DNA from: Acidobacteriota bacterium
GTDB lineage: Bacteria; Acidobacteriota; Thermoanaerobaculia; UBA5066; Gp7-AA6
Length of the DNA: 64,000 nucleotides
Direction: 5' to 3'
NCBI GenBank assembly: GCA_039933215.1
Contig: JBDTOO010000004.1
Location: 5,844 to 69,843, forward strand
Under the pieces are notes generated by a model. It did not search any database and was not told where the DNA came from. It saw only the letters and a program-made list of their open reading frames with translations. The position numbers and the translations under genes are program-made. This document shows, piece after piece, positions 27,771-57,493 of this stretch (its first letter is position 1; each line of letters begins with the position of its first letter).

Positions 27771-27794
27771 CTCAGGGCCTCACGCTCCCCGCCG

Positions 27795-37640: not shown

Positions 37641-38564
37641 TTACTGGGGAGGCTTCGGCTGCAGGTCCGGGTTCGCCGCTCCCGGAATGTACCCGGACTT
37701 GCCGTCCGCGGGAGCGGTGGACGGGGCGGACCCGGCGGGCGCCGCGTAGAGGCTCCCCTGGCCGTACGGAGTCGGCCGAGGGGCCGGAGGGGAGCTCGCG
37801 GGCGCCGGAGCCGTGGCGGGAGCACCGGAGGCTCCGGCCGAAGCGGCGGCCGAGGCGGCGGCCGCCGCGGCGACGGCCGCGGGCGGAGCGGCTGCCGGCG
37901 GTGCGCTCCAGGTGGGCGTGAATCGGAAGTGGTTGATCGTCTTGTCGCCGACCGGGAGGGTGACGGTGAAATTGGCGGACTGGCCGCCTTCGATCGTGCC
38001 GCCGGCCATGATCGCGTTCGCGCTCGTGACGGCGTTTCCGGCTTCGTCGATCCCGCTCACCGTCATGCGGGTGCCGGTCACGGTCTCCGTGCCGGTATTC
38101 ACGACATTGCCCGTGAGAAGAAGGTTCGTCCCCGCTTTCTGCTGCTTGTAGTCCCCGACCTCGACGCGCGCGGGACCCGCCTTCGCTCCGTTGGTCTTGT
38201 CGACCTCGTCGACCGGGATCATCGAGGAATGTCCGACGTCCGCGTCGGTCACGCGGACCCTGGCCCTGGGCTCCCGGCCGGAGCGCACGGCGTCGGCGGG
38301 CGTCGAAGGCGGAGCGACGACGGCCGGGCGGGCCGCCACCGGCCCGCTCGACCGCGCGGCCGCGGTCGCCCGGGTGTCGATCTCGGTCACCGGCACCGAG
38401 AGGAGCGTCCCGTCGGCCCGGGTCAGGATGGCGTTGCTCCCCTGCTGGACCCACGGCTGCTTCAAGTCGATGCGCGAGCCTCCCCGCAGGACGACGACGT
38501 CCGAAGCGAGCGCGAGGCCGGCGGCCAGGAAGAGACCGGTTCCGACGGATCGAATGTGGCTCAT
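37641..38564 (-). CDS. secreted hypothetical protein with an Ala/Pro-rich C-terminus, last gene of the minor-pilin/pilY1 operon
   Basis: Signal peptide. ATGA overlap with the pilY1 stop. Confidence 0.5.
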
Positions 38565-41500
38565 TGCTGCTGCTCTTTCCAGTTCTGACGGTTCTGCTTG
38601 CCGTCGAGATTATCCGTATTCTCGTCCAGCTTGCCGGTGGTGTGCGAGTACGTCGTGTGACTCTTCTGATCCGAACCGATCGTGTTCGCGGCGCTGACGA
38701 CGCCCGTCCCCATGTCCGACCGGTAGTCGGCGTACGTCAGGGTCGGGGAGGTCGTCGGATCGTAGAGCGGCGCTCCGTTCCGGTAGAAGAACCGGTACTG
38801 GAAGGAGTTGCCGTCGGTCGCGCACGGATTGGACACCGGCGAGAACGTGAGGACGGAGAGGTATCCATTCACCGCGATGACCGAGGACGTGGCCTTCTCG
38901 TCCTGCGTCTCGAAGTCGAGGTAACCCCCGAGCGAGAAGTCCGGCGGATTGGCGACCGTCGGGTTGATCGAGGTCAGGTCGGTGTCGTGAAGGGTCGTGA
39001 CCGCGCCGTCGTCGATCATGAAGAACAGCCGGTTGACCGAGGGATTCGGCGTCTTCAGGAGGTCGGAGCGGTCCCCCGTGCCCCAGGCGACGCCGAGAGT
39101 CGGCCGCGCGCCGCCGTTCAAGTAGATGAGCGTCGGCTCGAGGAAGATCGGCTGGTTCGGCTGCGTCGTTGACGTCGAGGCGTCGAACCGGAGGATCGGC
39201 TGCCAGTTGGTGATCATGTTCGAGACGATGAGCCCCTTCTTCGGCGTCGACGCGGCGTCGGCGGTCAGGTCGAGGCGCCACATGCGGCCGTTCACGTCGC
39301 CCATGTAGACCACATCGAGATACCCGTCGTCGTCGTAGTCGGCGACGGCCGGCGGCGCCGGCATCGGAGCGAAGTCCGACGCGCCCGTCCCGCTGTCGTC
39401 ACCCGACGTCGCCTTGTAGATGATCTTGCCGGTCTCGATGTCGAGGACGTAGATCGCCCGGCCCTTGGTCGCGTTGACGCCGGACGTCACGATCGGGTCT
39501 CCCGGCTTGAACGAGGGATCGTTGCCGCCGCCGAAGATCGCGACGTAGCGGTCTTCGTAGGCCGCTCCGACGACCACCTTGATCCGGCCGATGACCGGAG
39601 TGGACCACGTCTCGCCCATCGCCGGCAGGCCCAGGCAGGTGCCGGGGCTGACCGCGCAGTCGTCCATGACCTCCCAGAGAACGTTGGGGTAGATGCTGGG
39701 GCAGGAACCGCCGCCGTTCAGGCAGTCGGGTACGGTGTGCTTGCCGGCCGTCTTCACGCCGTAGGTCGACGAAGCGACGACGGTGTCGACCCGGTCCGGC
39801 TGGGTCACGTCGAGCCCGAAGACGGCGTTGCCGCCCTGGCGCAGCGTACCGACCAGGACCGTCCGCCAGGCCCGGTTCCCGTTCACCGGGGCCCCCGAGT
39901 GGTTCGTGTCGATGAACACGTCGCCGAGCGAGACCGAGCCGTCCACGAGGTAGCGGGGCTGCGGCGGGAAATTCAGGAGCTTCGTCTCGGACTTCATGAC
40001 CGCGCGGGGCTGGTACGCGAAGATCTCGCGCCCCGTGCCGAGGTCGAACGTGCCGGAGAAGACTCCGGGGTCGCGGCCCCACACGCCCGCGTCGAAGGCG
40101 TGGAGGAATCCGTCGTTCGAGCCCACGAAGACCACCTTGCGGCGCTTCTCGTGGAAGGTCGCGAACGTCGGGTAGGCGTTCAGGCTGCCCGAAAGATACG
40201 GGTATTTATGCGGAGGCTCGAGCACGAGCGGCTCGGAGTGGAAGATGTCGCCGAGCTTGTGCCCGTAGCCAGGGATCCCCGCGCCCGCCGAGGGAGGAGC
40301 CGGATCGGTCGGAATCTGCGGCGCGACGCCGGGGGCCGGAATGTTGTCGCGGTAGTAGTACGAGTAGAAGTTCTGCTGTCCGGCGGCCGGTCCGATGGCG
40401 GCGCCGATCGGCTTGACGCCCGGCAGATTCAGGATCTCGTCCCGGTTTCCGTTCGTCGACATGCCGCCCCGGAGGAACGCCACGAGGCGCTGCGCCTTGA
40501 CGTCGTCCGTCCCCGGAGTCAGGCCCATGTTCGTCATGAGGGTGGTGAAGCAGCCGCCGGTGCAGGAGCCGGTGTTCGGCAGGAACTCCCTGCGCACGAG
40601 AGGCACCGTCGGCGCTGCGCCGTCGGACCAGATCATCTTCCGGCCCGGCCACACCTTCAGGGGGCCCGCGTTAGCGGCTGTGTACGGAGCGCTCGGAGCC
40701 GCTTCGTTCTCGGAGCCGTTGCCCGTCAGGGTCGCCACGGGGTCCGTGTAGCCGAGGACGCGAGCCGCGTTCCAGGCGGGGAACCTGAGATCCGGATTCG
40801 CGTTGTCCGGGTCGGTCTCGTCCGGGAACCCGCCGCGCACGGGGCCGGCCGGGGTGGGCGTCGGCGTGGGACCGCCCGCGGTCGGCACCGGCGCGATGCC
40901 GGCCACGAGCGGGATGAAGCCGATGGAGTCGAGCTTGTAAGCCTTGAGCGAGCCGCTCCAGATGGACCACTGCGACGCGACGTCGTTGCCGCTGGAGTCC
41001 TTGCTGTCGTGGCTGGGGATGACGGCTCCGAGGATGCCCGTTTCTCCGAAGCCCGTCGACACCGCGGGAACCGAAGGAGCCGCGATGACGTTCGAGGTGC
41101 GTCTGAAGTCGATGATCGTCTGAAGGGCCGCCAGGATGGCGGCGCGGTTGTCCGCCGGATAAACCAGGCCTCCGCTGTTGTCCGCGATGCACTTCAGGCG
41201 GGGATCCGCCGGGTTCGTGTTCATCGCGATGACGTTGACCGGCACGCCCTTGACCTTGATCGAGAGGTCCGCGGCGGCCGCGAGGGCGCGGGCTCCGGAC
41301 GGGGATTCCGGAAGCAGAAGCTCCCCGAGGTCGCCGGCCGGGCCCTTGCCGGTCGGTCCGCCGACGCACGGGTTGGAGAAGCACTCGTCGAGGCCGTCCG
41401 TCAGGAAGACGACGATGTACTTGCGGCAGTTGATGCTCGGATCGTCCGTCTGCGGGAAGACGCTGTTGACGAGGTAGTTGTAGACGTCGTGCAGTGATCC

Positions 41501-44086
41501 CGCGAGGGGCGTGCCGGGAGCGGTCACGACGACGTTCCGGGCGTCCTCGGCGAGGGAGTACTCGTCCATGTGGGGCTTCGTCGAGTCGTAGTTCACGATC
41601 GACGTCGAGAAGCGCAGCAGGCGCTTGATCGCCTGGACGCTGTCGCCGTCGGTCGTCTTGAAGGCGCCCCAGTCGCGGGAGAACGGAACGACCGGCCAGT
41701 CCGCGGGACTGGGCGCCTCAGTGCCGGGCTGGTAGGGCAGGTAGGCCGGGTTGCCCGGCGCGGAGTCCGAGAAGTGCGCAATGCCGCCGCAGTCCCCCCC
41801 GTACGGGTCGCACGGGTTCGCGAGCGGCGGGAACGGACACGAGACGCCTCCGGACGCGTCGTTCGGGAACTGCTGGTCGCGCTGCGGCCGGTCCTTGTTG
41901 TAGATCGCCGAGTAGGCGCCCTGGTTGTGGCGGTTCGCGATCGCATCGGGCAGCGTGTCGGCGTCGCCGTCGGCCGCGACCGAACCCCACGGCGGGTTGC
42001 CGTTCGTCACGTCCTGCGCCGTCGCCTGGTAGACCGGGGGCAGGTCGTACAGGTCGGCGCGCCGGTAGCTGACGCGGACGACCCGCACGGGGGGACCGGT
42101 CAACGCCGCCGGATCGGCCTGGGGGTCGTCGAATCCGCGGTACGCGCGGGGAAGCGGATCGCCGTCGGGCTCGCCGTCGCCGTCGAAGTCCACGAACGAG
42201 CAGGACTTCAGCGGATCGTACTGGCACGGCCCGCACAGAAGCGGCGGGTTCGGGGGGCTGTTGAAGAGCGACTGCGGCACGCCCGGGCACGGAACGCCGG
42301 GGGAGCTCGAGGACGGGGGGGGCGGAGGCGGAGCCATCGCCAGGAGGCCGCGCATCGCGGCGGACACCCAGCGTCCCGCCGCCGGGATCAGGCTCGCCGC
42401 GGGCATCTGTCCGCTGGGGAGCGTGATGACGGGCGTCGGAGTCCGCGTGCTCGAGGGCGTCCGCGTCGGCGTGAACGTCGGCGGCAGCGGCGTCAGCGTG
42501 AACGTCGCCGTCCGCGTCGGCGTCGCCGTCAGCGTGTTCGTCTGCGTCGGCGTGTTGCTCGGCGTGAAGGTTTTTGTGATGGTCGGCGTGTTGCTCGGCG
42601 TGAACGTCTGCGTGAACGTCCGCGTGACGGTCGGGGTGCTCGTCGACGTGAAGGTCGGCGTGATCGTGCGCGTGTTGCTCGGCGTGAACGTCGGCGTGAT
42701 CGTGGGCGTCAGCGTGATCGTCGGCGAGAGCGTGGGCGTCAGCGTCTGAGTCGCCGTCCGGGTCTGCGTCAGGGTGACGGACGGAGTCACCGTGGGACTC
42801 TGCGTTCCCGTGGCCGTCGCCGTGAACGTCGGCGTGATCGTCGGCGTGCTCGTCTTCGTGAACGTCGGCGTGATCGTCGGCGTGTTGGTCCTCGTCGACG
42901 TGCTGGTGAACGTCGGCGTGATCGTCGGCGTGCTCGTCGTCGTGAAGGTCGGCGTGATCGTCGGCGTCAGCGTGATCGTCGGCGTCTTCGTCGGCGTGCG
43001 CGTCTTCGTCGGCGTGCGCGTGTTCGTCCGTGTGCGTGTGTTCGTCGGGGTATTGGTCTCCGTTGCGGTGTTCGTGACGGTCGGCGTCGCCGTCGGCGAG
43101 GCCGTGGAGGTGTTGGTCGGAGTCGGGGTTATCGTGGGCGTGTTCGTGGAAGTCGGCGTCGGCGTGTTCGTGGCGGTGGCCGTCGGCGTCGGCGGAGGCG
43201 CCCACTCCTCGATCTCGACCACGAGGTTGGGATCCGAGTAGTTGCCCGAGACGACCTTCATCCGCAGCTCGTATCCGCGCCGCGTGGCGGACTGCGTGCG
43301 GTAGATCACCTCTCCCTGGTTCAGACCCTTGGGGCCGAACGCTCCGCGCCAGGTGCCCGGAGCGGGAGCGGGCGGGACGGGGACGCCGACGCCCGGCCCG
43401 TACGGCGGCCGGGTGTCCGCGACCTCGCCCGTGTCCTCGCGGTTGTAGCTGTGCATGACCTTGTGGCCGAACTGCAGGTACCGGCCCTGGGAGATGTCGG
43501 GGTAGTCCCAGACCCCCACGCCGCTGTTGGGGTTGAACACGGCGTCGACCGACCCGCCGGGGGAGACAGCCGACGTGACGTCGATCTTGTCTGCGAAGTA
43601 GAGGAACTCGACGCCGCCGTTGTTCAGCAGGTCGCCCTTGACCCTGGCGCCGTTGATCGGATCTCCGAACGCCGCCGTGTCCTCGGCGCCGAACGACTGG
43701 TTCGGGTTGCGGTAGTACGCGAAGGCCCAGTTGACGTTCTGGCTCGTCGAGAGCACCTCGCGGAGCACGCTCTTGGCGACACCGAGCTTCGACCCTTCCG
43801 TGGGCACACCCGTCGTGCCCTCCGGGTAGATGAAGTCGTCCATGTAAGCCGGCAGCTCGAAGGAGTCCGTGAACTCGCGGTTCATCGAGTGCGAAGAGTC
43901 CAGGATCACGATCACGTCCGCGTTGGCGCCGGGGTTCGTCTGAAGGAGCTGTCGATCCTCCGGGCGGGCCGGAGAGGCCATGACGAAGAGGAGGAGCATC
44001 GTCACGGCGGCGCGATGCCGCTGTGCGAAGGCTCTCAGACCGCTGCGATGCGATGACGGGTTGTTTTTCATGGCCTCAGCTCTCAA
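38561..44086 (-). CDS. pilY1: PilY1-like type IV pilus tip adhesin (1841 aa): N-terminal VWA domain, roughly 260-aa Thr/Pro-rich tandem-repeat region, C-terminal PilY1 beta-propeller
   Basis: VWA MIDAS motif [11 protein letters not shown]. [14 protein letters not shown] repeats at residues 295-555. C-terminal [15 protein letters not shown] Ca-binding loop typical of PilY1/PilC. ATGA overlap with pilX. Confidence 0.7.
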
Positions 44087-44670
44087 AAGGGCAGTTTCTC
44101 GGGATACGGACCGACCTCGATGTCGGCGACGAGCGCTTTGGAAGACTCCGGCACGAGGGGATTACCGGGCGTGTTGCCCCCCTCGGTCCGCACCTCGAAG
44201 CTCCACAGATACAGGGCGGTTTCCTTGTTGTTCTGGTTCATCGGACCGAGGGGCATGTACCGCCGCCCGACGAGGCTCGGCGTCTGCACGTGCACCTGCA
44301 GGCCCGTTTCGGACGCGTCACCCGTGAAAAACGAACCGGCCGCATGGACGTGGCTCGGCATCTGGAAGGTGAGGCGGCCGAAGGGCGTCGTGAACTCCGG
44401 GCGCTTCATCAACGGAATGGTCGGCGCGCGCATCTCCGCCGACGCCCAGCGGATGCCCGAGTCCGCGGCGTAGAAGGCGCGGTTCACGGACCACTCGTTG
44501 GCGGCGATGCGGGACTCCGTGCTCGTGACGAGCATCAGGGCGATGCCGATCACGGTCAGGATGGCGAGCACCAGGATCGCGATCACGAGCGCCGCGCCGC
44601 GCTCGCCGCGGCGGGCGCGGTACGCGGGTGACACTCTTCGGGGACGCGGCGATGTGGCGAAGGTCTTCAT
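44083..44670 (-). CDS. type IV pilus minor pilin PilX-like protein
   Basis: PilX N-terminal domain: [35 protein letters not shown]. Confidence 0.6.
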
Positions 44671-44683: not shown

Positions 44684-46039
44684 TCAGTAGTTCCGGAGAT
44701 TGATCTTGATCGTCTGGATCCGGCGGCGGAAGTGCGGTTCCGTCGACAGGGTCGGGTACTGCGCGACGTCCGGGATCCCCGCCGTCACGGGCGTGTTCAT
44801 CACGACCATGCCGAGCGAGCCCTCCGCGCGATAGGTCGGGTCGGGGTCCTTCGACTTCGCGACGAGCGAGACCATGACGCCCTGGAGGCGCGGGCAGTGC
44901 GCGTTCGGGGTTCCGGGCACGAAGAAATCCGTCGCCACGTTCACGGTCTCCGTCGGCACGTTCGGGCGCCACTCGTCCTTGTTCGCCGCGGTCGAGAAGT
45001 TCTCGTCCGTATCCGTCGTGGCGTTGATCGACGCGGTGTCCCGGTCGATGCTGCCGTTGTCGTCGGCGTCCACGCCGTAGGCGATCTGCATGTCCTCGAC
45101 GTCGTCGGCGAGGCGCACGACGTCGAAATGGTCCCCGCGCCGCGTGGCCTGGGCGAGCGCCGGATGGAGGTGGTCCGTGTCGTCGATGAAATAGATGATG
45201 TCGTCCAGGATACCGGCGCGCCGGACGTTCTTGAGGCCTGCGGCGACCACCCCGGCGGCTCCGGGATCCTCGCCGTTGAAGCTCTGGGCGAGCGCGGTGC
45301 CGTACTTGACCGCGGCACCGAAGGTCCCCGTGCCGACGAGCGTCGTGGGATTGTCGAGCTGACCGACGCTGTACGAGTTCTGCATGATCCCGCAGGCCGG
45401 GTGGAGGTCGTCGTTGAAGGAAACCACGACGAGAAACGGGTTCACGCCCGTCGCCGACTGCGTGTAGAGATCGATGGCCGAGAACTGGGCACGGCCGTTG
45501 GCGGGATCGTCGTTGACGTGCTGCTTCGTGAGCACTCCCGTGATCGGCGCCGTCCAGAGGAGCATCGCGCTTCCGACGCACGCGGCCGGAGACGCTCCGA
45601 TCGCGCCCACACAGCCGTGCCCTTCGTCGAAGCCGACCAGGGGCGAATTGATCACCCCGCGGATCTCGATGATGTCGGTCCCGTCACGAACGGGAACGTC
45701 GACATCGGAAAGGTTCTTGATCTTGGTCGAGGAGACGTTGTCGTAGCTCGCCGAGCCCGAGTAGCCCGGCAGCCCGTTCGGCTGATGGTTCAGGACCGCC
45801 TGGGTGACGTAGACCCCGCCGGCGCCCGCGGCGCGGATCGTCCGGGTCATCTGGTAGATGCCGAAGCGCACGGAGCCCTGGGCGTCCGCGACGTCCTGCT
45901 CGCTCTTGTTGATGCGGGCGCTGGCGTCGAAGACCGCCAGGAGACCGAGCATCGCGATCGCGAGCAAGAACACGACGACCAGCATCTCGATCAGCGTGAA
46001 GCCGTGCTCCCGGGGGGAGAGGGTACGAACGGTCGTCAT
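44684..46039 (-). CDS. type IV pilus minor pilin PilW-like protein
   Basis: Prepilin motif HGFTLIEMLVVVFLLAIAML. ATG at 46039 gives an ATGA overlap with pilV. About 450 aa. Confidence 0.6.
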   Translation of the reverse strand: MTTVRTLSPREHGFTLIEMLVVVFLLAIAMLGLLAVFDASARINKSEQDVADAQGSVRFGIYQMTRTIRAAGAGGVYVTQAVLNHQPNGLPGYSGSASYDNVSSTKIKNLSDVDVPVRDGTDIIEIRGVINSPLVGFDEGHGCVGAIGASPAACVGSAMLLWTAPITGVLTKQHVNDDPANGRAQFSAIDLYTQSATGVNPFLVVVSFNDDLHPACGIMQNSYSVGQLDNPTTLVGTGTFGAAVKYGTALAQSFNGEDPGAAGVVAAGLKNVRRAGILDDIIYFIDDTDHLHPALAQATRRGDHFDVVRLADDVEDMQIAYGVDADDNGSIDRDTASINATTDTDENFSTAANKDEWRPNVPTETVNVATDFFVPGTPNAHCPRLQGVMVSLVAKSKDPDPTYRAEGSLGMVVMNTPVTAGIPDVAQYPTLSTEPHFRRRIQTIKINLRNY

Positions 46040-46674
46040 GGCGTGGGGGTCGCCGGCGGAGAGCAGGGAGGCGATCCGCACGGGTCGGATACGGAGACGT
46101 TCGTCGCGGGCGCCGGGTTATCGATGAACCCCGTGACCCGGGTCATCCGGGAGCCGATTCCGAGCGGTCCGCTGCTCACCTGGACAGTGACGTCAATGCG
46201 CTTGTACTGCACCGTCTGGTTCGCCGCCGTGACATGCACCGGGGTGAAGATCGTCGGATCCGGCGTCAGGGGCGCGGGAGTCGGCCCCCCGGGCGTCGGG
46301 ACCGCGTCGGGGGCCGGGACGGCGTACTGAGACACGTAATACGTAATCGAATAGGGATTCTGAACGCCGGGCGTCGCCGCCCCGGGGGGGACGCCGGTCT
46401 TGGGATCCGGAAGCTTCGGCGGCTGGTCGTTGCCGTGCGCACCCACGCTCAGACGCGCGTCGGTATAGCTCAGGTTCGAGAGCTGCTCGAGCTTGTCCCT
46501 CGCGAGCACGTTGACACTCGTGTACTCATTGGCCGAGTAGTTCGACTTCATGCTCGAGATGAAGAGCGGCGCGATCCCGAGAAGAACGAACGAGAGGAGC
46601 GCGAGAGAGATCAGGAGCTCGACCAGCGTCAGGCCCTTTTCCCCCCGGCGGCGGACGAGCGTCTTCACTGCCAC
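46036..46674 (-). CDS. type IV pilus minor pilin PilV-like protein
   Basis: Prepilin motif KGLTLVELLISLALLSFVLLGIAPL. Confidence 0.6.
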   Translation of the reverse strand: MAVKTLVRRRGEKGLTLVELLISLALLSFVLLGIAPLFISSMKSNYSANEYTSVNVLARDKLEQLSNLSYTDARLSVGAHGNDQPPKLPDPKTGVPPGAATPGVQNPYSITYYVSQYAVPAPDAVPTPGGPTPAPLTPDPTIFTPVHVTAANQTVQYKRIDVTVQVSSGPLGIGSRMTRVTGFIDNPAPATNVSVSDPCGSPPCSPPATPTP

Positions 46675-47216
46675 ACCACCGGCGTGATGACTTCCACCTT
46701 TCCGGAGGCGGAAGTGCGGATCGTGATCTGGTTCTTGTCACCGGCCGCGACGGGGCCCTCGATCTTGATGTCTGTCGAGAGCGGCGGGGGCGGCACGATG
46801 ACGCGGCCGTTGCCGTCGAAGGTGATCTTCCCGCCCGTCGGAAGCGTCAGGAACGCGAGCGACGCCTTGGGCAGGTTCAACTTGGTCTTCGGAAGCGGCG
46901 TCGGAGTTGGCGCCGGCGTATCCGCCTCGATCGTGTCGAGGAGATGGGTGCTCTGCGCCGCGGTCGCCGTCGTGACGTAGACGCTCGCGGGGAGGTTGCG
47001 CCGGACGGCGCGCATCCGGGCCGCGAGCAGCGTCGACTGGATCTCCGAGGCGGCGCTGCGGATCTGATTGCGGCGCGACATCTTCCCGAGATACGGGATC
47101 GCGATCGCGGTGAGGATTCCGACGAGGGTGAGCACGACGAGCATCTCCAGGAGGGTGAATCCTCGCTGGGACCGGTGGCGCAGATCGCCCGGGCGTTCGG
47201 TTTTCGAGCAAAGCAT
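46665..47216 (-). CDS. FimT/GspH-like minor pilin; start at ATG 47216 preferred over the ORF-track 47315
   Basis: Prepilin motif RGFTLLEMLVVLTLVGILTAIAIPY. The shorter start leaves a 200-bp divergent promoter region. Confidence 0.55.
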   Translation of the reverse strand: MLCSKTERPGDLRHRSQRGFTLLEMLVVLTLVGILTAIAIPYLGKMSRRNQIRSAASEIQSTLLAARMRAVRRNLPASVYVTTATAAQSTHLLDTIEADTPAPTPTPLPKTKLNLPKASLAFLTLPTGGKITFDGNGRVIVPPPPLSTDIKIEGPVAAGDKNQITIRTSASGKVEVITPVVWQ

Positions 47217-47309
47217 CGAGTGGTCCAAGAGCGATTCCCGTGCCCGGGTGGCCGCCGGGAGGCATCTCATTGAAAAACAATGGCTTAACTTCAGCCATGG
47301 CCGGGGGCC

Positions 47310-47325
47310 TGGCATCCTCAGTGCC
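47310..47325 (+). promoter_or_regulatory. candidate sigma-54 (-24/-12) promoter TGGCAT-N6-TGC upstream of the HEAT::pilT gene
   Basis: GG and GC elements are spaced exactly as in the TGGCAC-N5-TTGC consensus. One mismatch at the -14 position. Confidence 0.3.
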
Positions 47326-47342: not shown

Positions 47343-49907
47343 GTGACGCTCGGGGGCGGTCCGAGCGCGATCGCGTCGGGTCCCCGGATCGCTCGGGGGG
47401 GTTACACTTTCGCATTCATGTGGTCAAAAAAGCGACGCTCGCCTCCCCCCGAGGCGCGGGCGCTCCTGACCCGTGTCCGAGGGCACATCTGGAAGTCGGA
47501 CGGGGAGCGGGATGACCTGCTCCGCCGCATCTCCGCGGAGACCACGCTCGAAGCGGAAGACGTCGGCTGGATGGCGGCGAACGCCGACCCGTCGGTGCGC
47601 CAGTCCGGGATCGCGATCCTCCAGAAGTTTCCGTTCGAGGCCGCCTCCGCGGCCCTGTTCGAGTTTCTCGCGGGCCACGGCGACGCGGCCCGCCGGAACG
47701 TCTCCGCATCCCTGGAGCTCGTCGGCGGCGCCTCCTTCGGCTCGCACCTGCCGGCGCTTCTCGCGCACCCGGACCCCGGCGTCGGCTTGATCGCGCTCGA
47801 CTGGCTCCGGCGCAACCCGTCCGAGGCCGCGCTCGACGGGATCGTGCCCGCCCTGGCGTCGACGTCGGCGTCGCTGCGCCGGAAGGCGTTCGCGATCGTC
47901 GAGGCGACGCCGGGCAGGAAGAGTCTCGCCCTCGCGCGTGCCGCTCTCGACCACGATGACGAGGAGATCCGGTTCCGGGCGGTCGGCCTGGTCGCAAAAT
48001 ACCCCGACGAGGCGAACGTTCCGCCGCTTCTCCGCCGGTGCCATGCCGACTCGGCCCGAGTCCAGGACGCCGCGACCGCCGCGCTCGCGCCGCTTCTCGG
48101 GGCGCTCGCCGCGGGCAACGACTCCGACGCCCGCTTCCACGAGCACATCCTTCCCCTCCTGACGGACGTGAACCCGCGCGTGCGGCAGCTCGCGATGAAG
48201 ATCCTTGAGAGCCAGGATCCCGCCCGGGTCGCCGACTCCTTTTTGAAAGGATTCCGCGATACGTACGGCCCGGCCCGCGACCGCGCGATCGAAGGGCTCC
48301 ACGAGCTCGGCCCCGCGTTCATCCAGGCCTTTCTGGATCGCGACGACGACCCGGACCGGGGGGTCGCCGCGCTCGCGTCCTCGATCGCCGTGACGCTGCG
48401 CGGCCCGGACGTCGTCCCTCACTGCATGCGCTTTCTCGAAGGGACCGACTGGTGGCTTCGCGATCGGGCCGCACAGGCGCTCGCGGAGATCCGCGACGAG
48501 CGTGCGCTGCCCGCGCTCCTCCACATGCTGAACGACCCCGATTCCGACATCTCGGCCGCCGCCGCCCTCGGCGTCTGGGGCAGCCCGCAGGCGCTCCCGG
48601 GGCTCCTCGAGGCGTTCAAGAAGGGGACCAAGGACCTGCGGCTCGAGATCCTCGAGGCCTTCGCGAGAATCCCCGATCCGCGGGTCGACCCCCTCCTGGA
48701 GCAGATCGCGCGGATGGTCGCCGACCCGCTGATCCACGGCAAGGCGACGCGGATGCTCGCCGCCCGCGCCGGCGCCCCGATCGAGGAGACGCCGGAGCCC
48801 ACGTTCACGGAAATCGACTTCGCGGCCAAACCCTTTCCGTCGCTGCGCGACCTGCTCCACCACGCGCGCGCCGTCGGAGCCTCGGACCTCCACCTCTCGG
48901 CCGGAACGAAGCCGCACGTGCGCCGGCTCGGGCGCCTGGAGCCCCTCCCTCTCGCCGACACGACGGACGGGCAGATGCGCGAGTGGATGCCGCAGATCCT
49001 GGGAGAGCGCGCCGGCGAGCTCGAGGCGCTCCGTCAGGTCGACTTCTGCTACAAGGACCCGGACCTCGGGCGCTTCCGGACGAACGTCTTCTTCCAGCGC
49101 AAGGGCTTGAACGCCGTCTTCCGGCTCGTCCCGTTCGAGATCCCCACGCTCGCGGAGATCGGGATGCCGGAGAGCCTCTGGGAGATCAGCACGTTCAGCC
49201 AGGGGCTCGTCCTCGTCACCGGCGCCGCCGGCTGCGGGAAGACGACGACCCTCGCGGCGCTCGTCGACCGGATCAACGCGACGGAGCACTCCCACATCCT
49301 CACCATCGAAGACCCGATCGAGTACGTCCACGCCAACAAGGAGTCGCTGATCAACCAGCGGGAGATCCCCTCGCACTCGAAGTCCTTCGCCCGGGCGCTC
49401 CGGCAGTCCCTGCGGGAGGATCCCGACGTGATCCTCGTCGGCGAGATGCGCGACCTGGAGACGATCTCCCTCGCGATCACCGCGTCGGAGACGGGTCACC
49501 TCGTCCTGGGAACCCTCCATACGACGACGGCGTCCTCCACCGTCGACCGCATCATCAACGCGTTTCCCGCGGAACAGCAGAACCAGATCCGCATGATGAT
49601 CTCCGACTCCCTGAAGGCCGTCGTTTCGCAGACGCTGCTCCCCCGGCGGGACGGCGCCGGGCGGGTGGCGGCCTATGAGGTCCTCCGCAACACGCCGAAC
49701 GTGGCCGGGTTGATCCGCGACGGGAAGACGTTTCAGCTTCCGACCGCCATGCAGACCGGAAGCGCGTCCGGAATGGTCCTCATGGACACCGCTCTGATGG
49801 CGCTCGTGCAGGACGGCGTCATCGAGCCGCGGGCCGCGTACAACCGGGCGCAGCGCAAGGAAACCTTCGAGCCGATGCTCCAGGCCGACGAGGGAGCGAC
49901 GGCGTGA
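47343..49907 (+). CDS. fusion: N-terminal HEAT/PBS-lyase-like repeat domain (about 480 aa) plus C-terminal PilT/PilU-type twitching-motility ATPase; start 47343 (GTG) or 47418 (ATG)
   Basis: N-terminal repeated DPxVR ... ALxxLG HEAT-like units. C-terminal Walker A GAAGCGKTTT, Asp box and His box identical in layout to PilT. Confidence 0.7.
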   Translation: MTLGGGPSAIASGPRIARGGYTFAFMWSKKRRSPPPEARALLTRVRGHIWKSDGERDDLLRRISAETTLEAEDVGWMAANADPSVRQSGIAILQKFPFEAASAALFEFLAGHGDAARRNVSASLELVGGASFGSHLPALLAHPDPGVGLIALDWLRRNPSEAALDGIVPALASTSASLRRKAFAIVEATPGRKSLALARAALDHDDEEIRFRAVGLVAKYPDEANVPPLLRRCHADSARVQDAATAALAPLLGALAAGNDSDARFHEHILPLLTDVNPRVRQLAMKILESQDPARVADSFLKGFRDTYGPARDRAIEGLHELGPAFIQAFLDRDDDPDRGVAALASSIAVTLRGPDVVPHCMRFLEGTDWWLRDRAAQALAEIRDERALPALLHMLNDPDSDISAAAALGVWGSPQALPGLLEAFKKGTKDLRLEILEAFARIPDPRVDPLLEQIARMVADPLIHGKATRMLAARAGAPIEETPEPTFTEIDFAAKPFPSLRDLLHHARAVGASDLHLSAGTKPHVRRLGRLEPLPLADTTDGQMREWMPQILGERAGELEALRQVDFCYKDPDLGRFRTNVFFQRKGLNAVFRLVPFEIPTLAEIGMPESLWEISTFSQGLVLVTGAAGCGKTTTLAALVDRINATEHSHILTIEDPIEYVHANKESLINQREIPSHSKSFARALRQSLREDPDVILVGEMRDLETISLAITASETGHLVLGTLHTTTASSTVDRIINAFPAEQQNQIRMMISDSLKAVVSQTLLPRRDGAGRVAAYEVLRNTPNVAGLIRDGKTFQLPTAMQTGSASGMVLMDTALMALVQDGVIEPRAAYNRAQRKETFEPMLQADEGATA

Positions 49908-51067
49908 CGCCGGCGGCTGTGGCGGGCGGCACGGAGGTGCAGGCGTTCGGAGCGAACCGGGTGGACCGGTTCCTTTCGATCCTGCCGAAGCGCAACGGCT
50001 CGGACCTGCACCTCGCCGTCGGCGGTCCGCCGATGCTCCGGATCGACGGCCGGCTCGAGCGCATCCGCTTCCGAGCCCTGACCGAAGGGGATTTCTACAA
50101 CCTGATCGGGCCGATCACCCCGGCGCGGCTCTGGGAGGCGTTCACGCGCGACGGGGACGCGGATTTCGCCTACCAGATGGGCGAGGAGGCCCGCTTCCGC
50201 GTGAATCTCCTCCGGCAGGAGCGCGGGTCGGCGGCGGTCTTTCGCCTGATCCCGTCGCGGGTTCCCACCGTCTCCGATCTGCGCCTCCCGGATGCGATCG
50301 CGAATCTCTCCGACGGAACGCGGGGGCTCGTGCTCGTGACGGGGCCGACCGGCAGCGGAAAGACGACCACGCTCGCAGCGATCCTGGACCGGATCAACCA
50401 GCGCCAGCCGTACCACGTCGTCACGATCGAGGACCCGATCGAGTTCGTCCACATCAACCAGCGGTCGGTCTTCACGCAGCGCGAGATCGGGACCGACGTG
50501 CCGGGCTTCGCCGAAGGGGTCAAGGCGGCGATCCGCGAGGATCCCGACGCGCTCTTGATCGGCGAGATGCGGGACCTGGAGACGATGCGCATGGCCCTGT
50601 CGGCGGCCGAGACGGGGCTCCTCGTGTTCGCGACGCTCCACACCAATTCCGCGGCGAAGGCCATCGATCGGATCATCGACGCGTTTCCCGCCGCGGAGCA
50701 GGAGCAGATCCGCACCGTCCTCGCCGAGTCGCTGCGCGCCGTCGTGGCCCAGCAGCTGCTCGCGCGCGTGGGGGGCGGCCGGGCCGCGGCGTTCGAGATC
50801 CTGATCGGCTCCACGGCCCTCTCGAACGCGATCCGCGAGGGAAAGACCTCGCTCATCAACAATCAGATCCAGACCGGCAAGGCGAAGGGGATGATCGCGA
50901 TGGATCAGTCGCTCGGCGAGCTCATGCGCGCCGGCACGGTCTCCCCCGAGGACGCGCTCGAGCGCGCTCTCGATCGCGAGAGCTTCAAGAACGTGATTGC
51001 CGGCTGGATTCCCGATCCGAAGCCGGCGCCCCGCCCGGCGCCGTCGCGGCCGCCAGCCGCAAAGTGA
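49904..51067 (+). CDS. pilT: type IV pilus retraction ATPase PilT
   Basis: GPTGSGKTTT Walker A and a PilT-type AIRE[DE]PD motif. GTGA overlap with the upstream gene. The 3' low-complexity tail overlaps the convergent kinase gene by 83 nt. Confidence 0.85.
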   Translation: MTPAAVAGGTEVQAFGANRVDRFLSILPKRNGSDLHLAVGGPPMLRIDGRLERIRFRALTEGDFYNLIGPITPARLWEAFTRDGDADFAYQMGEEARFRVNLLRQERGSAAVFRLIPSRVPTVSDLRLPDAIANLSDGTRGLVLVTGPTGSGKTTTLAAILDRINQRQPYHVVTIEDPIEFVHINQRSVFTQREIGTDVPGFAEGVKAAIREDPDALLIGEMRDLETMRMALSAAETGLLVFATLHTNSAAKAIDRIIDAFPAAEQEQIRTVLAESLRAVVAQQLLARVGGGRAAAFEILIGSTALSNAIREGKTSLINNQIQTGKAKGMIAMDQSLGELMRAGTVSPEDALERALDRESFKNVIAGWIPDPKPAPRPAPSRPPAAK

Positions 51068-52787: not shown

Positions 52788-53587
52788 GATGCCGGCCACA
52801 GGGCGCGGTATCGCGCGACGAGCGGCTCCCCGAAGAAGAAGGCCGCCACCGCCCCGACGGCCAGGAAGACGCCGAACGGCAGGCGCAGCTTGCGGTCGCC
52901 GGCGCCGGTCACGATGAGAAGCACGCCCACGAGGCTCCCCGAGAGAGAGGCGAGCAGGATCGTGACGAGGACTCCCCAGGGACCGATGAAGGCGCCGATC
53001 ATCCCCAGCATCTTCACGTCCCCGAGTCCCATGCCCTCGTGCCCGGCGATGCGCTCGTAGAGAAACGCGACGAGGAAGAGCGATCCCGCACCGGCGGCGG
53101 CCCCGAGCACCGCCGCGAGCGGGGAGCGCGACGGTGAGAGAAAGGCGACCCCGATCCCGAACGCGATGCCGGTCAGCGTGATCTTGTCGGGGAGGATCTG
53201 GAACTCCGCGTCGATCGCGAGGAGCGCGAGGCAGGCGGAGACCAGGAACACCCCCGAGAGGATCTCCCCCCAGTCGCGCCCGCGCATCGCGACGAGAACC
53301 CAGAGGATCCCGTTCGAAAGCTCCAGCGCGGGGTAGCGGATCGCGATCGGCGCCCGGCAGGTCGCGCACTTGCCGCGCAGCGCGAGCCAGGAGATGACCG
53401 GCACGTTCTGGAGCGGCCGAATCGGCTCGCCGCAGGAGGGACAGTGCGAGCCGGGCGAAACGAGGGACTCGCCACGCGGCAGGCGGTGGACGAGCACGTT
53501 CAAGAACGAGCCGACGAGAAGACCCGCGACGCCCGCGAGCGCGAGGAGAAGCGGACCCCAGTCCGACCAGGGCCCGACGGGCGTCAC
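52784..53587 (-). CDS. pilD: prepilin peptidase (A24 family) PilD
   Basis: N-terminal Cys-box CPSCGEPI ... CATC. Polytopic C-terminus with catalytic Asp motifs (ILPDKITL; GLGDVKMLGMIGAF). GTG start, GTGA overlap. Confidence 0.8.
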   Translation of the reverse strand: MTPVGPWSDWGPLLLALAGVAGLLVGSFLNVLVHRLPRGESLVSPGSHCPSCGEPIRPLQNVPVISWLALRGKCATCRAPIAIRYPALELSNGILWVLVAMRGRDWGEILSGVFLVSACLALLAIDAEFQILPDKITLTGIAFGIGVAFLSPSRSPLAAVLGAAAGAGSLFLVAFLYERIAGHEGMGLGDVKMLGMIGAFIGPWGVLVTILLASLSGSLVGVLLIVTGAGDRKLRLPFGVFLAVGAVAAFFFGEPLVARYRALWPAS

Positions 53588-55785
53588 AGGACCGCCCCGG
53601 CGCGGGCGGGCTCTCCGCGGCGGACGAGGACGACGAGCAGGATCAAGCCCGCGGCGGAGAGTGCCGCGCCGGCCGCGAACGAGACCGGCCGGTAGAGAAA
53701 CGCGACGCGATGAGGACCCGCGGCGAGCGCGACAGCCCGGAAGCACCCGTCGGCGAGGAGGATCTCGGCGCGCTTCCCGTCGACCTCCGCCCGCCAGCCG
53801 GGCCAGGCGAGGTCGGTCAACACGAGAAGCCCGGCCCCGTCGGCGTGGACCTCGGCGACGACGCGTTCGGGACGGTCCTCCGCGATGCGGGCGATCAGAA
53901 ATCCCTTCCGCGCCGATCCCTCGACCGGTCGGGGAGACGGCTCCCGGTCGACGAACACCGTCCGCTCCCAGTCGGCATCCCCGCGCGCCATCCGGGCCCA
54001 TGCCTTCGCGGGGTCCGGCTCGATCGAGAACGCGCGGACGAAGGAGAGCCTCGGACGGTAGGGATGGATCGGCGCCCGGAAGTAGTCGCCGACTCTTCTC
54101 GAGCCCATGTTCGGAGGGAGGTAGGGCGTCCAGAGGACGCGCCCGCTCGCCGCTCCGGCGGGCCGCTGCGGATCGCGTTCCGAATCGACGACGTCCGCCA
54201 CGGCCCGCGCCGAGAGGGTCGCGAGCGGAGATGCGGTCCGGAGAGTTCGCACCCCCATCGTGAGATTCGTGTATCCGAGAAGCGCTTCCCGCTGCCGGCG
54301 CAGCGTGGCCGCGTCGAAGGCGTCGTCGCGGAGGACCGCGGGGACGAGCGTCGCCATCGGCGGCGTGAGCACGCGTCCGGGCAAAGCCGCGAGAACGGAG
54401 ACCGCCGGCGGAATGCGCCGCAGCTCCGACTCGGGCGCGAAGCGGAAGAGACGCCCTCCGGAGAACGCGAGACCCGCGCAGAGGAACAGGGCCGCGGCCG
54501 TCTGCATCGCGCCCTGCCACGGGAGGCGCTCCGGCGAAACGAGCGCGACGGCCGCGAGCGCCGCGAGCCCGGCGGCCTCGGCCGCGCGCGCCACCGCCGG
54601 CTGCGCGGAGAAGGCGATGAGCAGCGCGCCGGCGGTCGCCGCGCCCGCGAGGAAGATGCGGTGCCGCGCCTCGCGAGAGAAGCGAAGGCTGTCGAGCCCG
54701 AGGCCGGCGAGAACCGCGAGCGCGAACGCCGCCGGCGCGAGAGCCTTCGCCGGGTAGCGGATCCGGTCCAAGGGCGGGAGGCTCCGCAGCCAGGCGCCGG
54801 GCGGACCGGCGGCCGCGAGGGCGACGCCGGCGAGGACGATTCCGGCGAGAACGAGGGTCAGGGGACGGCGCTCCCGCTCGCGGAGGGCGGCGGCGGCGAG
54901 GACGAGCGTCAGCGTTCCCGCCGCCAGCGATGGAAGGTAGGACGTGCCGCTTCCGCGCGAGAGCCCCGTCACCCCGGCGAGCCCCTGCCACCCGACGGCT
55001 CCTGCGTCGCGCTCGACGGCGGGCAGCGGGCCCCGGCGCTCGGACCGCAGCGTGAGCTCGCCGAAGGGAACGAGCGCCACCGCGGCGAGCACGAGCCCGA
55101 GCGCGGCGGAAGCGGCGAGCCGCCCGAGGCGGAGGCGCGGCGAAGGCTGGAATCCCCCCTCGCGAGCGGGCAGCGCCCGCCAGACGAAGAGCAGCGCGAT
55201 CGCGGCGGTCGCCCCCGAGATCTCCGGGCTTCCGGACAGCGCCTGGACGGCGAAAAGGCCCGCGAAGGCGAGGCGCGACGCGCGCGTCGCGAGCCCGCCC
55301 CGCGCGAGCGCCGCGAGGATCGGAAGCCAGGCATACGCTCCGAAGTGATTCCAGTAGCCGCAGAGAGACGCGGCGAAGCCCGACGCCGCAAACGACGCCG
55401 CCCCCGCCAGTGACGCCGCTTCCGTGGCGCCCTCCTGCCGCAGGAAGGCGCGTGTTCCGGCGACGGCCGCCGCGAAATGGAGGACCAGGAACAGCCCGGC
55501 CGCGAGCGCGGCGGAAGGCAGCAGGAACAGGAGCCCCGGCGGGTAGAACGCGCCCGACTGGAGATTCGCCAGCCAGGGCTCGCCGCACCCCGACAGGGGA
55601 TTCCACAGAGGCAGCTCGCCGGCCCGGAGACGATCCGCCGTGTAGAGCTTCAGCGGAAAGAAGAAGTCCGCCTGGTCGCGAAAGGTCGGCGCTGCGCGCC
55701 GGAAGAGGGCGGGGAAGAGCCAGTCGAGACAGGGAAAAACAGCCGCCGCGGCGAGAAGGCCGGCGGGGGCGCGGCGGAGGGTCAC
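53584..55785 (-). CDS. large polytopic membrane protein (733 aa), YfhO-like / putative GT-C-fold glycosyltransferase
   Basis: More than 12 TM helices followed by a soluble C-terminal domain. N-terminal loop motif resembles the YfhO family. Paralogous to 58998..61325 and 61322..63664. Confidence 0.4.
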   Translation of the reverse strand: MTLRRAPAGLLAAAAVFPCLDWLFPALFRRAAPTFRDQADFFFPLKLYTADRLRAGELPLWNPLSGCGEPWLANLQSGAFYPPGLLFLLPSAALAAGLFLVLHFAAAVAGTRAFLRQEGATEAASLAGAASFAASGFAASLCGYWNHFGAYAWLPILAALARGGLATRASRLAFAGLFAVQALSGSPEISGATAAIALLFVWRALPAREGGFQPSPRLRLGRLAASAALGLVLAAVALVPFGELTLRSERRGPLPAVERDAGAVGWQGLAGVTGLSRGSGTSYLPSLAAGTLTLVLAAAALRERERRPLTLVLAGIVLAGVALAAAGPPGAWLRSLPPLDRIRYPAKALAPAAFALAVLAGLGLDSLRFSREARHRIFLAGAATAGALLIAFSAQPAVARAAEAAGLAALAAVALVSPERLPWQGAMQTAAALFLCAGLAFSGGRLFRFAPESELRRIPPAVSVLAALPGRVLTPPMATLVPAVLRDDAFDAATLRRQREALLGYTNLTMGVRTLRTASPLATLSARAVADVVDSERDPQRPAGAASGRVLWTPYLPPNMGSRRVGDYFRAPIHPYRPRLSFVRAFSIEPDPAKAWARMARGDADWERTVFVDREPSPRPVEGSARKGFLIARIAEDRPERVVAEVHADGAGLLVLTDLAWPGWRAEVDGKRAEILLADGCFRAVALAAGPHRVAFLYRPVSFAAGAALSAAGLILLVVLVRRGEPARAGAVL

Positions 55786-55809: not shown

Positions 55810-56289
55810 TCAGTTCTGGGTCCCCTCGGGCCACTGGATGAACGTGCCGTTGCTGAAGAGGATGTCGTCGTTGAAGTCCGTCGTCGTTCCACACACGACG
55901 GAGGACGAGACCCCGTCGCGTCCGAGGCTGCGAACGTTGTACTTCGAGAAAGCGACGTCCATGTTGTAGACCATGTAGTGCGACCAGCCGTCCCGCAGCG
56001 GCGGAAGGGCGATGTAGGTCGGGGAGAGGTTGGTGAACGAGGTCGCCGCGAGAACCGTGCCGGCGTCGGTGTACGTTCCCCCGGCGCATGCCGCCGCCGG
56101 AAAGAAACTGTTGTCGACGTGGTACGCCTCGAGAGCGACGGCGAGCGTCCGCATGTCCGCGACGGTGCGCTTCTGCCTCGCTCGCTGGACGGCGTTCAAG
56201 AGATTCGGAATCGCGATCGCGGCCAGGATGCCGATGATCGCGATCACGATCAAGAGCTCGATCAGCGTAAAGCCTCGCTGGCGTTTCAT
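55810..56289 (-). CDS. type IV pilin (PilA/GspG-like) with prepilin leader, copy 1
   Basis: MKRQRGFTLIELLIVIAIIGILAAIAIPNLLNAVQRARQK. C-terminal Cys pair. Confidence 0.75.
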   Translation of the reverse strand: MKRQRGFTLIELLIVIAIIGILAAIAIPNLLNAVQRARQKRTVADMRTLAVALEAYHVDNSFFPAAACAGGTYTDAGTVLAATSFTNLSPTYIALPPLRDGWSHYMVYNMDVAFSKYNVRSLGRDGVSSSVVCGTTTDFNDDILFSNGTFIQWPEGTQN

Positions 56290-56332
56290 TGGGCGCCTCC
56301 GCTCGGATGGATCGAGTCCTGCACCGGTCGGC

Positions 56333-56827
56333 CTACTGCTGGGTGCCTTCGGGCCACTGCAGGAAGGCGCCGTCCGCATACGCGATGTCGTCGTTGAAGT
56401 CCGTCGTCGTGCCGCAGACGAGCGTCGTGTTGATGGTCTTGTTGCGTCCGCCCGACTGGATCCGATAGTTGTTGCCCGGCGTGTCGCTCGAGTAGTTCAT
56501 CGCCGCCGACCAGCCGTCGACCTTCGGGGGCTGCGCGATGTACGTCGGCGAGAGATTCGTGAACGACGCAGTGGCGAGCGCCACGTTCGAGCCGCCCGTG
56601 TACAAGCCCGCGGCGCAAGCGGCGGCCGGGTACTTGTTGTTGTCGACCGCGTAGGACTCGACCGCCGTCGCCAGCGCCCGCATGTCCGACATGGTCCGCT
56701 TCTGCTTGCCGCGCTGCACGGCGTTCAGAAGGTTGGGGATCGCAATCGCGGCCAGGATGCCGATGATCGCGATGACGATCAGAAGCTCGATCAGAGTGAA
56801 ACCCGACTCCGCTTTTCTTGGGGACAT
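56333..56827 (-). CDS. type IV pilin (PilA/GspG-like), copy 2
   Basis: SGFTLIELLIVIAIIGILAAIAIPNLL ... MSDMRALATAVESYAVDNNKYP. RBS AAGGA upstream. Confidence 0.75.
   Translation of the reverse strand: MSPRKAESGFTLIELLIVIAIIGILAAIAIPNLLNAVQRGKQKRTMSDMRALATAVESYAVDNNKYPAAACAAGLYTGGSNVALATASFTNLSPTYIAQPPKVDGWSAAMNYSSDTPGNNYRIQSGGRNKTINTTLVCGTTTDFNDDIAYADGAFLQWPEGTQQ
56336..56810. repeat. 475-bp direct repeat (copy A), near-identical to 56963..57437 (pilin gene duplication)
   Basis: The two stretches read identically base for base over most of pilin copies 2 and 3. Confidence 0.8.
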
Positions 56828-57450: not shown

Positions 57451-57493
57451 CTTCCCTCCCTGTTTTCTATGCTGTTGAGTTCGCCCGGTATAG

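Follow-up and report, generated by a model that had tools for sequence, protein, structure and literature searches.

How a type IV pilus protein comes to carry more than two hundred residues in which every second one is threonine, and what such a tract may do, is the question raised by a locus in a bacterium of the Acidobacteriota (Thermoanaerobaculia; assembly GCA_039933215.1). We analysed a stretch of 64,000 nucleotides (nt) of its contig JBDTOO010000004.1, hereafter called the window, which encodes a PilY1-like protein. Through PilY1, the type IV pilus makes contact with its surroundings. An earlier reading made from the sequence only had described a Thr/Pro tract of about 260 amino acids (aa) at 42424-43204 and interpreted it as a stalk between an N-terminal von Willebrand factor A (VWA) domain and a C-terminal propeller. 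We locate the tract at nearly the same position (aa 296-556, window 42419-43201, minus strand), find that it is built of X-Thr dipeptides, and place it inside what is very probably a split VWA fold. We give roughly even chances to the explanation that it is a disordered, polycationic loop or tether, maintained by selection and probably O-glycosylated, emanating from the split VWA domain at the pilus tip and serving surface contact and/or shielding.

The 261 residues of the tract comprise 119 Thr, 44 Pro and 17 Ser, which together make up 69% of it. Its strict core (aa 299-532, window 42491-43192) consists of 117 consecutive X-Thr dipeptides in one register, with Thr at 110 and Ser at 7 of the alternating positions. 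The resulting Thr/Ser alternating run of 234 aa compares with a mean of 14.6 aa and a maximum of 36 aa for the longest such run in composition-preserving shuffles of the 261 residues. Autocorrelation of the tract protein likewise separates even lags (0.42-0.54) from odd lags (0.02-0.07). The X register is diverse (35 Pro, 12 Asn, 10 each of Ala, Ile and Phe, 9 Arg, 8 Ser and 7 Leu, with other residues making up the remainder), so that 30% of its positions are Pro and about 26% are hydrophobic, while it holds a single Thr, a single Glu and no Asp. The sole clear higher-order period in this register is 12 aa (z = 4.6), which equals a 36-nt DNA unit. Using Tandem Repeats Finder on the tract DNA, overlapping arrays with periods of 6, 12, 18 and 36 nt and 60-89% match were obtained, the best being 36 nt in 5.1 copies (73% match, 42821-43009) and 18 nt in 3.7 copies (89% match, 42982-43048). 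The plus-strand DNA motif given by the earlier reading agrees with the consensus found here. Thr is encoded by ACG in 78% and Pro by CCG in 86% of cases. The array is degenerate, since the longest exact DNA repeat in the tract is only 33 nt and occurs in two copies.

The base unit of the tract is the X-Thr dipeptide (6 nt), with a weaker 12-aa (36-nt) super-period on top of it. The repeat units of 18 to 36 nt proposed earlier do exist as a degenerate periodicity, but the defining unit is the dipeptide, kept by selection on Thr as outlined below, and the periodicity is conserved at the protein level over the full 234 aa. No second (X-Thr)n tract is present within the 64-kb window, and a Pfam search with the tract alone returned no family at E<=10, including the PT repeat and curated low-complexity repeat models.

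To place the tract in its family, homologues were collected with a tract-deleted PilY1 as the query. This yielded 46 close homologues, and the gene was found in 24 species-representative genomes (labels of the form P#### denote homologous proteins and L### the loci or genomes of relatives). All close relatives come from metagenome-assembled genomes of Thermoanaerobaculia/Acidobacteriota, the nearest being 83% identical, and an exact match to this PilY1 in public assemblies, for which two start codons were tried, is not on record. The window itself belongs to such an Acidobacteriota genome, a protein encoded nearby being 100% identical to that of locus tag ABI592_01615. The insertion site is fixed, with more than 40 Thermoanaerobaculia/Acidobacteriota homologues having the tract there. 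In 29 of 32 full-length homologues the tract starts 44-46 aa after a conserved GAFGP motif (49, 51 and 58 aa in the others), and in 30 of 32 it ends 25-30 aa before a conserved 11-residue post-tract motif, the two that differ including L006 with 12 aa. Based on these anchors, tract lengths in the 32 full-length sequences range from 155 to 368 aa; a sliding window gave lengths of up to 388 aa as well as shorter tracts in P0025 (97 aa) and P0026 (128 aa). By eye, P0011 has only a short Thr/Pro segment of roughly 50 aa, and P0021 has a 116-aa tract plus extra domains. In P0012 and P0015 the site is filled by another segment of about 260 aa without Thr alternation, and P0016 and P0020 are without a tract. 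The tract had been called unusual for a PilY1 protein, which holds in comparison with model organisms, whereas within this acidobacterial clade it is the rule.

As a side observation, the insertion point (the equivalent of position ~43200) behaves like a variable cassette slot, with inserts that have no Pfam match. A CBM5/12-like carbohydrate-binding module, considered for the alternative inserts of P0016, P0021, P0025 and P0038, was dropped as it found no Pfam support.

The tract also stands apart by charge. Its net charge is +14, compared with -34 for the whole protein, and all other segments of the protein are net negative. Net charges of +11 to +40 were calculated for 31 of 32 family tracts, the remaining one being +3, and the family tracts overall contain 0.4% Asp plus Glu and 7.3% Lys plus Arg. 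Since Asp and Glu are frequent in unrelated (X-T)n tracts, the cationic bias is specific to this PilY1 family.

Comparison with P0001, which is 83% identical overall, points to selection acting on the alternation. The two tracts are 77% identical and differ by indels of 6, 6 and 3 aa. In columns where both proteins have Thr, the codon differs in 46 of 109 cases (42%), compared with 25-32% of identical-residue columns in the flanks, and the only replacements in the T register are seven Ser and one Ile. Identity in the X register is 61% vs 83% in the flanks. Thr is kept despite high synonymous turnover, therefore the alternation is held by selection at the protein level and not by DNA homogenisation. 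Together, the aligned sequences show purifying selection on the alternating Thr (rarely Ser), with X residues that drift and acidic ones that are excluded. Further, no register switch was detected in five homologues with tract windows of 255-373 aa, and the landmarks TGTQ and TPLPPT persist inside the tracts.

These findings bear on the possibility that the tract is neutral filler, a slippage-born spacer tolerated in a permissive surface loop and merely connecting two lobes, which we consider unlikely. That (X-T)n sequences are widespread among large proteins of unrelated kinds (with 5638 representative sequences at E<=1e-3), that some family members lack or replace the tract and that X positions and length drift would all be expected of a tolerated spacer. 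A spacer of this kind does not account for Thr being retained where its codons have changed, nor for replacements that are almost all Ser, an unbroken register, the family-wide exclusion of acidic residues, a fixed insertion point and conserved internal landmarks.

The structural context of the tract was assessed by AlphaFold2, with a model covering aa 1-1200 and built from 43 aligned sequences (mean predicted local distance difference test (pLDDT) 58, predicted template modelling score (pTM) 0.58). On the N-terminal side of the tract, the model contains β1 (56-62), α1 (100-114), β2 (118-125) and β3 (131-135). On the C-terminal side, α2 (816-823), α3 (861-876) and β4 (889-896) are followed by α4, β5, α5, β6 and α6 up to residue 992. 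This order of elements agrees with what we take to be the canonical VWA topology. The metal-ion-dependent adhesion site (MIDAS) motifs flank the tract in canonical order, with DSSHS (aa 63-67) before it and GTPLAG (aa 858) and FLTDG (aa 894) after it. In alignments with a family hidden Markov model (HMM), the DxSxS segment ahead of the tract falls on the DxSGS start of the VWA domains in classical PilY1 proteins (E 3e-4), and the post-tract segment on residues 275-518 of P0059 (E 6e-6), a protein whose Pfam VWA domain spans 221-352. Using hhalign, the VWA region of P0059 was matched with a probability of 79% (E 1.7e-5) by the C-terminal half only. We also built a spliced profile, in which aa 48-136 of the family sequences were joined to aa 812-1000. 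It matched the VWA domains of PDB entry 4cn8 (E 1.6e-4) with both halves collinear in one VWA domain, and D16, S18, S20 and T174-D175-G176 are invariant in the spliced family alignment.

Based on these models and profiles, it is very likely that the VWA fold is split and that both sides of the tract belong to one fold, where we infer that they pair in a common sheet. The tract lies inside an excursion of about 680 aa that leaves the VWA domain after β3 and re-enters it before α2. The excursion begins with a β-rich lobe A (modelled strands 160-168, 203-207, 246-249, 259-263, 273-280 and 287-295), runs through the tract and a post-tract segment, and ends with a lobe B; net charge over aa 557-815 is -13. 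The modelled helix at 569-582 falls within a conserved 15-residue stretch of the post-tract segment. This segment (aa 557-592) is strongly conserved as a whole, and truncated PilY1 gene models often start at its Met.

As part of an excursion tied at both ends to one fold, the tract would therefore be no VWA-to-propeller stalk. The sequence-only reading had favoured an O-glycosylated, mucin-like stalk between these two domains whose slipped-strand length changes tune the reach of the adhesin, and we now regard this as improbable. The high Thr/Pro content and the predicted disorder would suit a stalk, as would lengths of 155-388 aa across species, differences of 18-59 aa in some pairs with 94-96% identical flanks and indels of repeat units. 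The position assumed for it did not hold, as AlphaFold2, the family HMM, the spliced profile and hhalign all have the tract interrupting the VWA fold, and a further 277 aa lie between the C-terminal part of the VWA domain and the propeller. A variable reach does not fit this split-VWA topology.

The stalk proposal also relied on the tract being a slippage hotspot, which was not borne out. At 83% identity, the tract has 1.15 indels per 100 aa vs 0.57 elsewhere in the gene, an excess of only about twofold. Close pairs were defined as those with flanks at least 94% identical. Here, L004, L005 and L009 (flanks 95-97% identical) have equal tract lengths, L018 and L021 differ by 18 aa in the form of three 6-aa indels, and L010 differs from L007 and P0003 by 53-59 aa. 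We counted 17 gap runs among relatives, 11 of them exactly 6 aa and the others 3, 14, 25 and 28 aa long; being taken from protein alignments, these runs are whole codons by construction. Length changes slowly via in-frame indels, usually of a hexapeptide (18 nt). Because all repeat units are multiples of 3 nt, length can vary without frameshift off-switching. With a match of 60-89%, units of 6, 12, 18 and 36 nt and a longest exact repeat of 33 nt, the tract does not have the makings of a phase-variable contingency locus. Thus, relatives do differ in tract length by in-frame gains or losses of repeat units, but the modest indel density, the degenerate array and the equal lengths in the three close relatives do not support a hotspot.

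For aa 300-556, AlphaFold2 gave a pLDDT of about 30 without secondary structure, compared with 70-95 for the flanking parts. The Thr/Pro-rich low-complexity region described by the earlier reading is confirmed, and the model presents it as a polycationic, predictedly intrinsically disordered segment in an otherwise acidic protein. Assuming 0.31-0.36 nm per residue, its contour length is estimated at about 80-90 nm. A folded Thr ladder, that is a β-solenoid or stacked strands like TxT ice-binding proteins that would bind minerals, ice or polysaccharide, is very improbable: the i, i+2 spacing would set all Thr on one strand face, and the hydrophobic X residues would suit such a fold, but the high share of Pro in the X register, a model that stays without secondary structure even with 43 aligned sequences, the absence of a coil-length periodicity beyond the weak 12-aa signal and the frequent 6-aa indels all argue against it. 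An assembly artefact, i.e. a collapsed or expanded repeat, can almost certainly be dismissed: although short-read contigs of relatives often break in the tract and many homologues begin near its end, it is collinear with two independently assembled relatives apart from the 6-, 6- and 3-aa indels, tracts of 269, 285 and 353 aa are carried by the long-read contigs L011 (4.28 Mb), L016 and L017, no exact repeat in it reaches the length of the k-mers used, and the minus-strand PilY1 frame is intact with a G+C content at third codon positions (GC3) of 0.92.

Short-read contigs often end inside (X-T)n tracts, and L002/L003 starts within one. A large number of homologues, with called lengths of 1225-1394 aa, have their first residue at the end of the tract or shortly behind it, in several cases at a conserved Met. 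It appears that assemblies broken at the tract, together with gene callers, yield N-terminally truncated PilY1 proteins and spurious antisense open reading frames (ORFs), for which L002/L003 offers a direct check. This is of practical relevance, as a 'PilY1' called from an internal Met is a truncated one. In the window, antisense ORFs over the tract (e.g. 41570-44056 and 42774-43241, plus strand) were rejected as genes, being mirror-image low-complexity frames; the overlapping plus-strand ORF has the GC pattern of such a frame (0.93/0.60/0.55).

Candidate enzymes for modification of the tract are encoded in the same locus. In streptococci, the YfhO-family GT-C enzymes PgtC2 and PgfM1 O-glycosylate extracytoplasmic Ser/Thr-rich disordered regions (PMC12041528). 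The YfhO-family gene of the window (Table 1) matches Pfam YfhO with 34.6 bits (cutoff 28.5), its product has about 9 hydrophobic segments including one at the C-terminus, and its homologues are annotated as YfhO family. Two further paralogues of ~775 aa, 46% identical to each other, match the YfhO-like protein with E-values of 2e-13 and 2e-7, and both genes precede those for an M20 peptidase and the pilins. Two ~775-aa proteins, M20 peptidase, pilin(s), YfhO and PilD stand in this order in L028 and L029 as well, and pilin-YfhO-PilD is also found in L027; the YfhO gene overlaps pilD by 4 nt in L027 and L028. By analogy to the streptococcal enzymes, periplasmic O-glycosylation of the tract by YfhO-type candidates of the pilin operon is plausible. 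Taken by themselves, the three YfhO-like paralogues around the pilin genes look like a pilus-linked glycosylation locus, of which literature searches turned up no description.

In the explanation to which we give even chances, both ends of the excursion sit in one VWA sheet, as we infer, and the tract would act as a long loop or tether, with the two lobes that it connects lying on the distal face of the tip protein, and would not lift the VWA domain off the propeller. After Sec export, the Thr hydroxyls would most likely be O-glycosylated in the periplasm, with the YfhO-type GT-C proteins of the pilin operon as candidate enzymes. This would turn the tract into a stiffened and hydrated cationic brush that resists proteases and that might, as pure conjecture, make an initial contact of low specificity with anionic surfaces and/or act as a shield for the MIDAS site of the VWA domain. 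A more specific version seems unlikely to us, namely that the tract is the dedicated substrate of the three YfhO-type GT-Cs, as an acidobacterial, diderm parallel to the streptococcal system, and that the glycosylated loop is a mechanical element with about 80-90 nm of hidden length, freed when a retracting pilus pulls the VWA sheet open. If it were true, it would tie the tract to the force-sensing role of the Pseudomonas vWA domain, which in P. aeruginosa PilY1 is the force-sensitive part and a proposed mechanosensor (PMC8806160, PMC9210963, PMC11891296).

Several results count against a glycosylated loop in a split VWA domain and temper our confidence in it. Pfam and NCBIfam searches with the native protein and with sub-pieces called no VWA domain, Pfam matched spliced family members to VWA/VWA_2 with E-values of 0.007-0.0095, i.e. 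below cutoff, and a Foldseek comparison of the AlphaFold2 model with the PDB returned mostly VWA domains, with weak E-values of 0.07 or worse. The YfhO match is limited to ~70 residues at the C-terminal end of the Pfam model (profile positions 765-835), and the S. mutans PgfM2/PgfM1 models of NCBIfam match the same protein at its C-terminus only (E 3e-5), far under their cutoffs. A YfhO gene also lies beside the tract-less PilY1 P0016 (L031), therefore the enzymes may act on pilins instead. Finally, the tract is dispensable for PilY1 function as such, because some members replace it (P0012, P0015) or lack it (P0016, P0020). Co-occurrence of YfhO and tract, which we had considered as discriminating evidence, fails for the same neighbour of P0016.

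The system combines known parts, namely a PilY1 tip protein and a Thr-rich disordered region. With P. aeruginosa PilY1, Neisseria PilC and the Myxococcus PilY1 paralogues it shares the gene position after fimU-pilVWX, a propeller with a Dx(D/N)xDxxxD Ca loop and N-terminal VWA/MIDAS motifs. In contrast to classical PilY1, the VWA domain is very probably interrupted by ~680 aa including the 261-aa tract, Pfam misses it, and sequence identity is confined to the propeller. The classical PilY1 proteins P0049, P0056 and P0059 are without such a tract. Extracytoplasmic Thr-rich disorder in surface adhesins is likewise found in the streptococcal Ser/Thr-rich disordered regions and in the Thr-rich repeats of Cnm and WapA (glycosylated by YfhO-family GT-C enzymes, PgfM1 and PgtC2), and YfhO-family proteins are encoded in the same locus here. 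The present protein differs from them in phylum and envelope, in its location at a pilus tip instead of a cell-wall anchor and in having a strict dipeptide instead of TTT-type blocks. Similarity between PgfM and the YfhO protein of the window is weak and C-terminal only, and glycosylation is here a prediction from the candidate genes.

Thr/Pro-rich, repeat-derived and disordered or extended regions are also known from the Pro/Thr (PT) linkers of actinobacterial cellulases, the Pro/Thr/Ser (PTS) regions of mucins and fungal adhesin stalks (Candida Epa1), which are usually O-glycosylated and variable in repeat number. PT linkers and stalks join complete domains to one another or raise a domain above the cell wall, whereas this tract is nested inside a domain. 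It further differs from PT linkers and mucins by Thr at every second residue, diverse X residues (30% Pro, with Phe, Ile, Asn and Arg), its polycationic character and the lack of a Pfam repeat family. In case of P. aeruginosa TfpW and TfpO/PilO, a membrane glycosyltransferase gene directly follows the major pilin gene, an arrangement shared by the present locus. Here, in contrast, the candidates are of the YfhO family and number three paralogues, and their target could be the pilin, PilY1 or both.

When 1.84 billion representative proteins were searched by phmmer with the tract as the query, 5638 matched at E<=1e-3, of which 798 reached E<=1e-10 and 27 reached E<=1e-30; most of the matching stretches are 150-250 aa long and lie inside proteins of 600-7500 aa. 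The few matches sampled share the X-T alternation and include a subtilase with a type IX secretion system (T9SS) sorting domain as well as SBBP-propeller, VWA+DUF11 and FlgD-Ig proteins; they look secreted or surface-associated. Almost no names or taxonomy were recovered for cluster members of unrelated (X-T)n proteins. Literature searches found nothing relevant on Thr-rich or disordered tracts in PilY1 and nothing describing strictly alternating (X-T)n tracts. Sequences of this type are common, and the present one stands out by being nested in the VWA domain of PilY1, by its charge and by its conserved locus context.

The significance of the locus is that an Acidobacteriota clade appears to have placed a selected polycationic Thr-alternating loop into the VWA domain, to which a mechanosensor role has been ascribed in Pseudomonas. 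If the tract is glycosylated, YfhO glycosylation of Ser/Thr-rich disordered regions would extend from streptococci to diderms and to pilus tips. Thousands of large proteins from uncultured bacteria contain (X-T)n tracts, and the present family lends itself well to a study of their function, offering a fixed insertion site together with natural variants in which the tract is long, short, absent or replaced.

The identification of the gene as PilY1 by the earlier reading is well supported. Pfam T4P_PilY1 (PF05567) matches aa 1278-1431 with E 1.5e-17 (64 bits vs a cutoff of 28.1), PDB entry 3hx6, the C-terminal domain of P. aeruginosa PilY1, matches with E 4.7e-16, and close homologues carry names of the PilC/PilY family. 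The ORF starts at a TTG codon and overlaps the pilX stop codon. The DYDDDGYLD loop, which had also been pointed out before, does lie in the propeller and aligns with the DNNSDGVAD loop of 3hx6, which is reported to bind Ca. Its D, D, D, G and D columns are nearly invariant across the family, and it is predicted to be an EF-hand-like, metal-binding Ca loop. pilY1 lies downstream of fimU-pilV-pilW-pilX on the same strand, an order also found in L001, L029 and L031, and is followed on its 3' side by a translationally coupled FxLYD-like gene and a sigma-54 response regulator. Two PilT-type ATPase genes are divergent from the pilin operon; beyond them lie a histidine kinase gene, pilD, the YfhO-family membrane protein gene and three pilin genes. 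Coordinates are collected in Table 1.

Table 1. Features of the PilY1 protein and its locus, in window coordinates.
Feature	Position	Strand	Basis
PilY1-like type IV pilus tip protein, 1841 aa	38561-44086	-	ORF, Pfam, PDB match, GC3
Probable VWA N-terminal piece, aa 56-135: β1 with DxSxS (DSSHS aa 63-67), α1, β2, β3	43682-43921	-	AlphaFold2 pLDDT 71-90, family HMM, spliced profile
β-rich lobe A, aa 136-295, start of excursion	43202-43681	-	AlphaFold2 pLDDT mostly 70-92; conserved in homologues
(X-Thr)n tract, aa 296-556	42419-43201	-	Periodicity statistics, pLDDT about 30, net charge +14, no Pfam family
Post-tract segment, aa 557-592: helix then polyproline run	42311-42418	-	Family consensus, AlphaFold2 helix 569-582
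Lobe B, aa 593-815, Cys/Asp-rich	41642-42310	-	Invariant Cys, Asp and Trp columns; moderate pLDDT
Probable VWA C-terminal piece, aa 816-1000: α2, MIDAS-Thr helix (GTPLAG aa 858), β4 with FLTDG (aa 894), α4-β5-α5-β6-α6	41087-41641	-	AlphaFold2 pLDDT mostly 83-95; hhalign; HMM; 4cn8
PilY1 β-propeller and C-terminal region, aa 1278-1841	38564-40255	-	Pfam, 3hx6
DYDDDGYLD loop, aa 1583-1591	39314-39340	-	Aligns with DNNSDGVAD loop (ADNNSDGVAD) of 3hx6
pilX	44083-44670	-	Pfam and NCBIfam
pilW	44684-46081	-	Pfam and NCBIfam
pilV-like minor pilin	46036-46674	-	Pfam and NCBIfam
fimU/gspH-like minor pilin	46665-47315	-	Pfam and NCBIfam
YfhO-family GT-C-type polytopic membrane protein	53584-55785	-	Pfam YfhO; between pilin genes and pilD
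YfhO-like paralogue, 776 aa	58998-61328	-	Matches YfhO-like protein at N- and C-termini; polytopic by hydropathy
YfhO-like paralogue, 792 aa	61322-63700	-	Matches YfhO-like protein at N- and C-termini; polytopic by hydropathy

Further features of the window were noted in passing. The FxLYD-like gene (37641-38564, minus strand) encodes a secreted-looking protein of 307 aa that matches FxLYD weakly and ends in a low-complexity tail rich in Ala and Pro; the start codon of the gene and the stop codon of PilY1 overlap (ATGA), and a counterpart follows PilY1 in L001, L002 and L031. At 47343-49907 (plus strand), a PilT/T2SSE-type ATPase is fused to a long N-terminal HEAT-repeat region (854 aa) and is followed by a plain PilT-like ATPase at 49904-51067, a pair also present in L027. 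One pilin gene is tandemly duplicated (56333-56827 and 56962-57522, minus strand; 629-bp spacing), with at least 300 nt being 100% identical and the mature proteins identical, and a third, diverged pilin gene (about 74% nt identity) is located at 55810-56379. Unrelated to the pilus locus, the regions 22619-25660 and 26283-29336 (both minus strand) encode a TonB-dependent receptor with CarboxypepD_reg and a biotin carboxylase plus carboxyltransferase.

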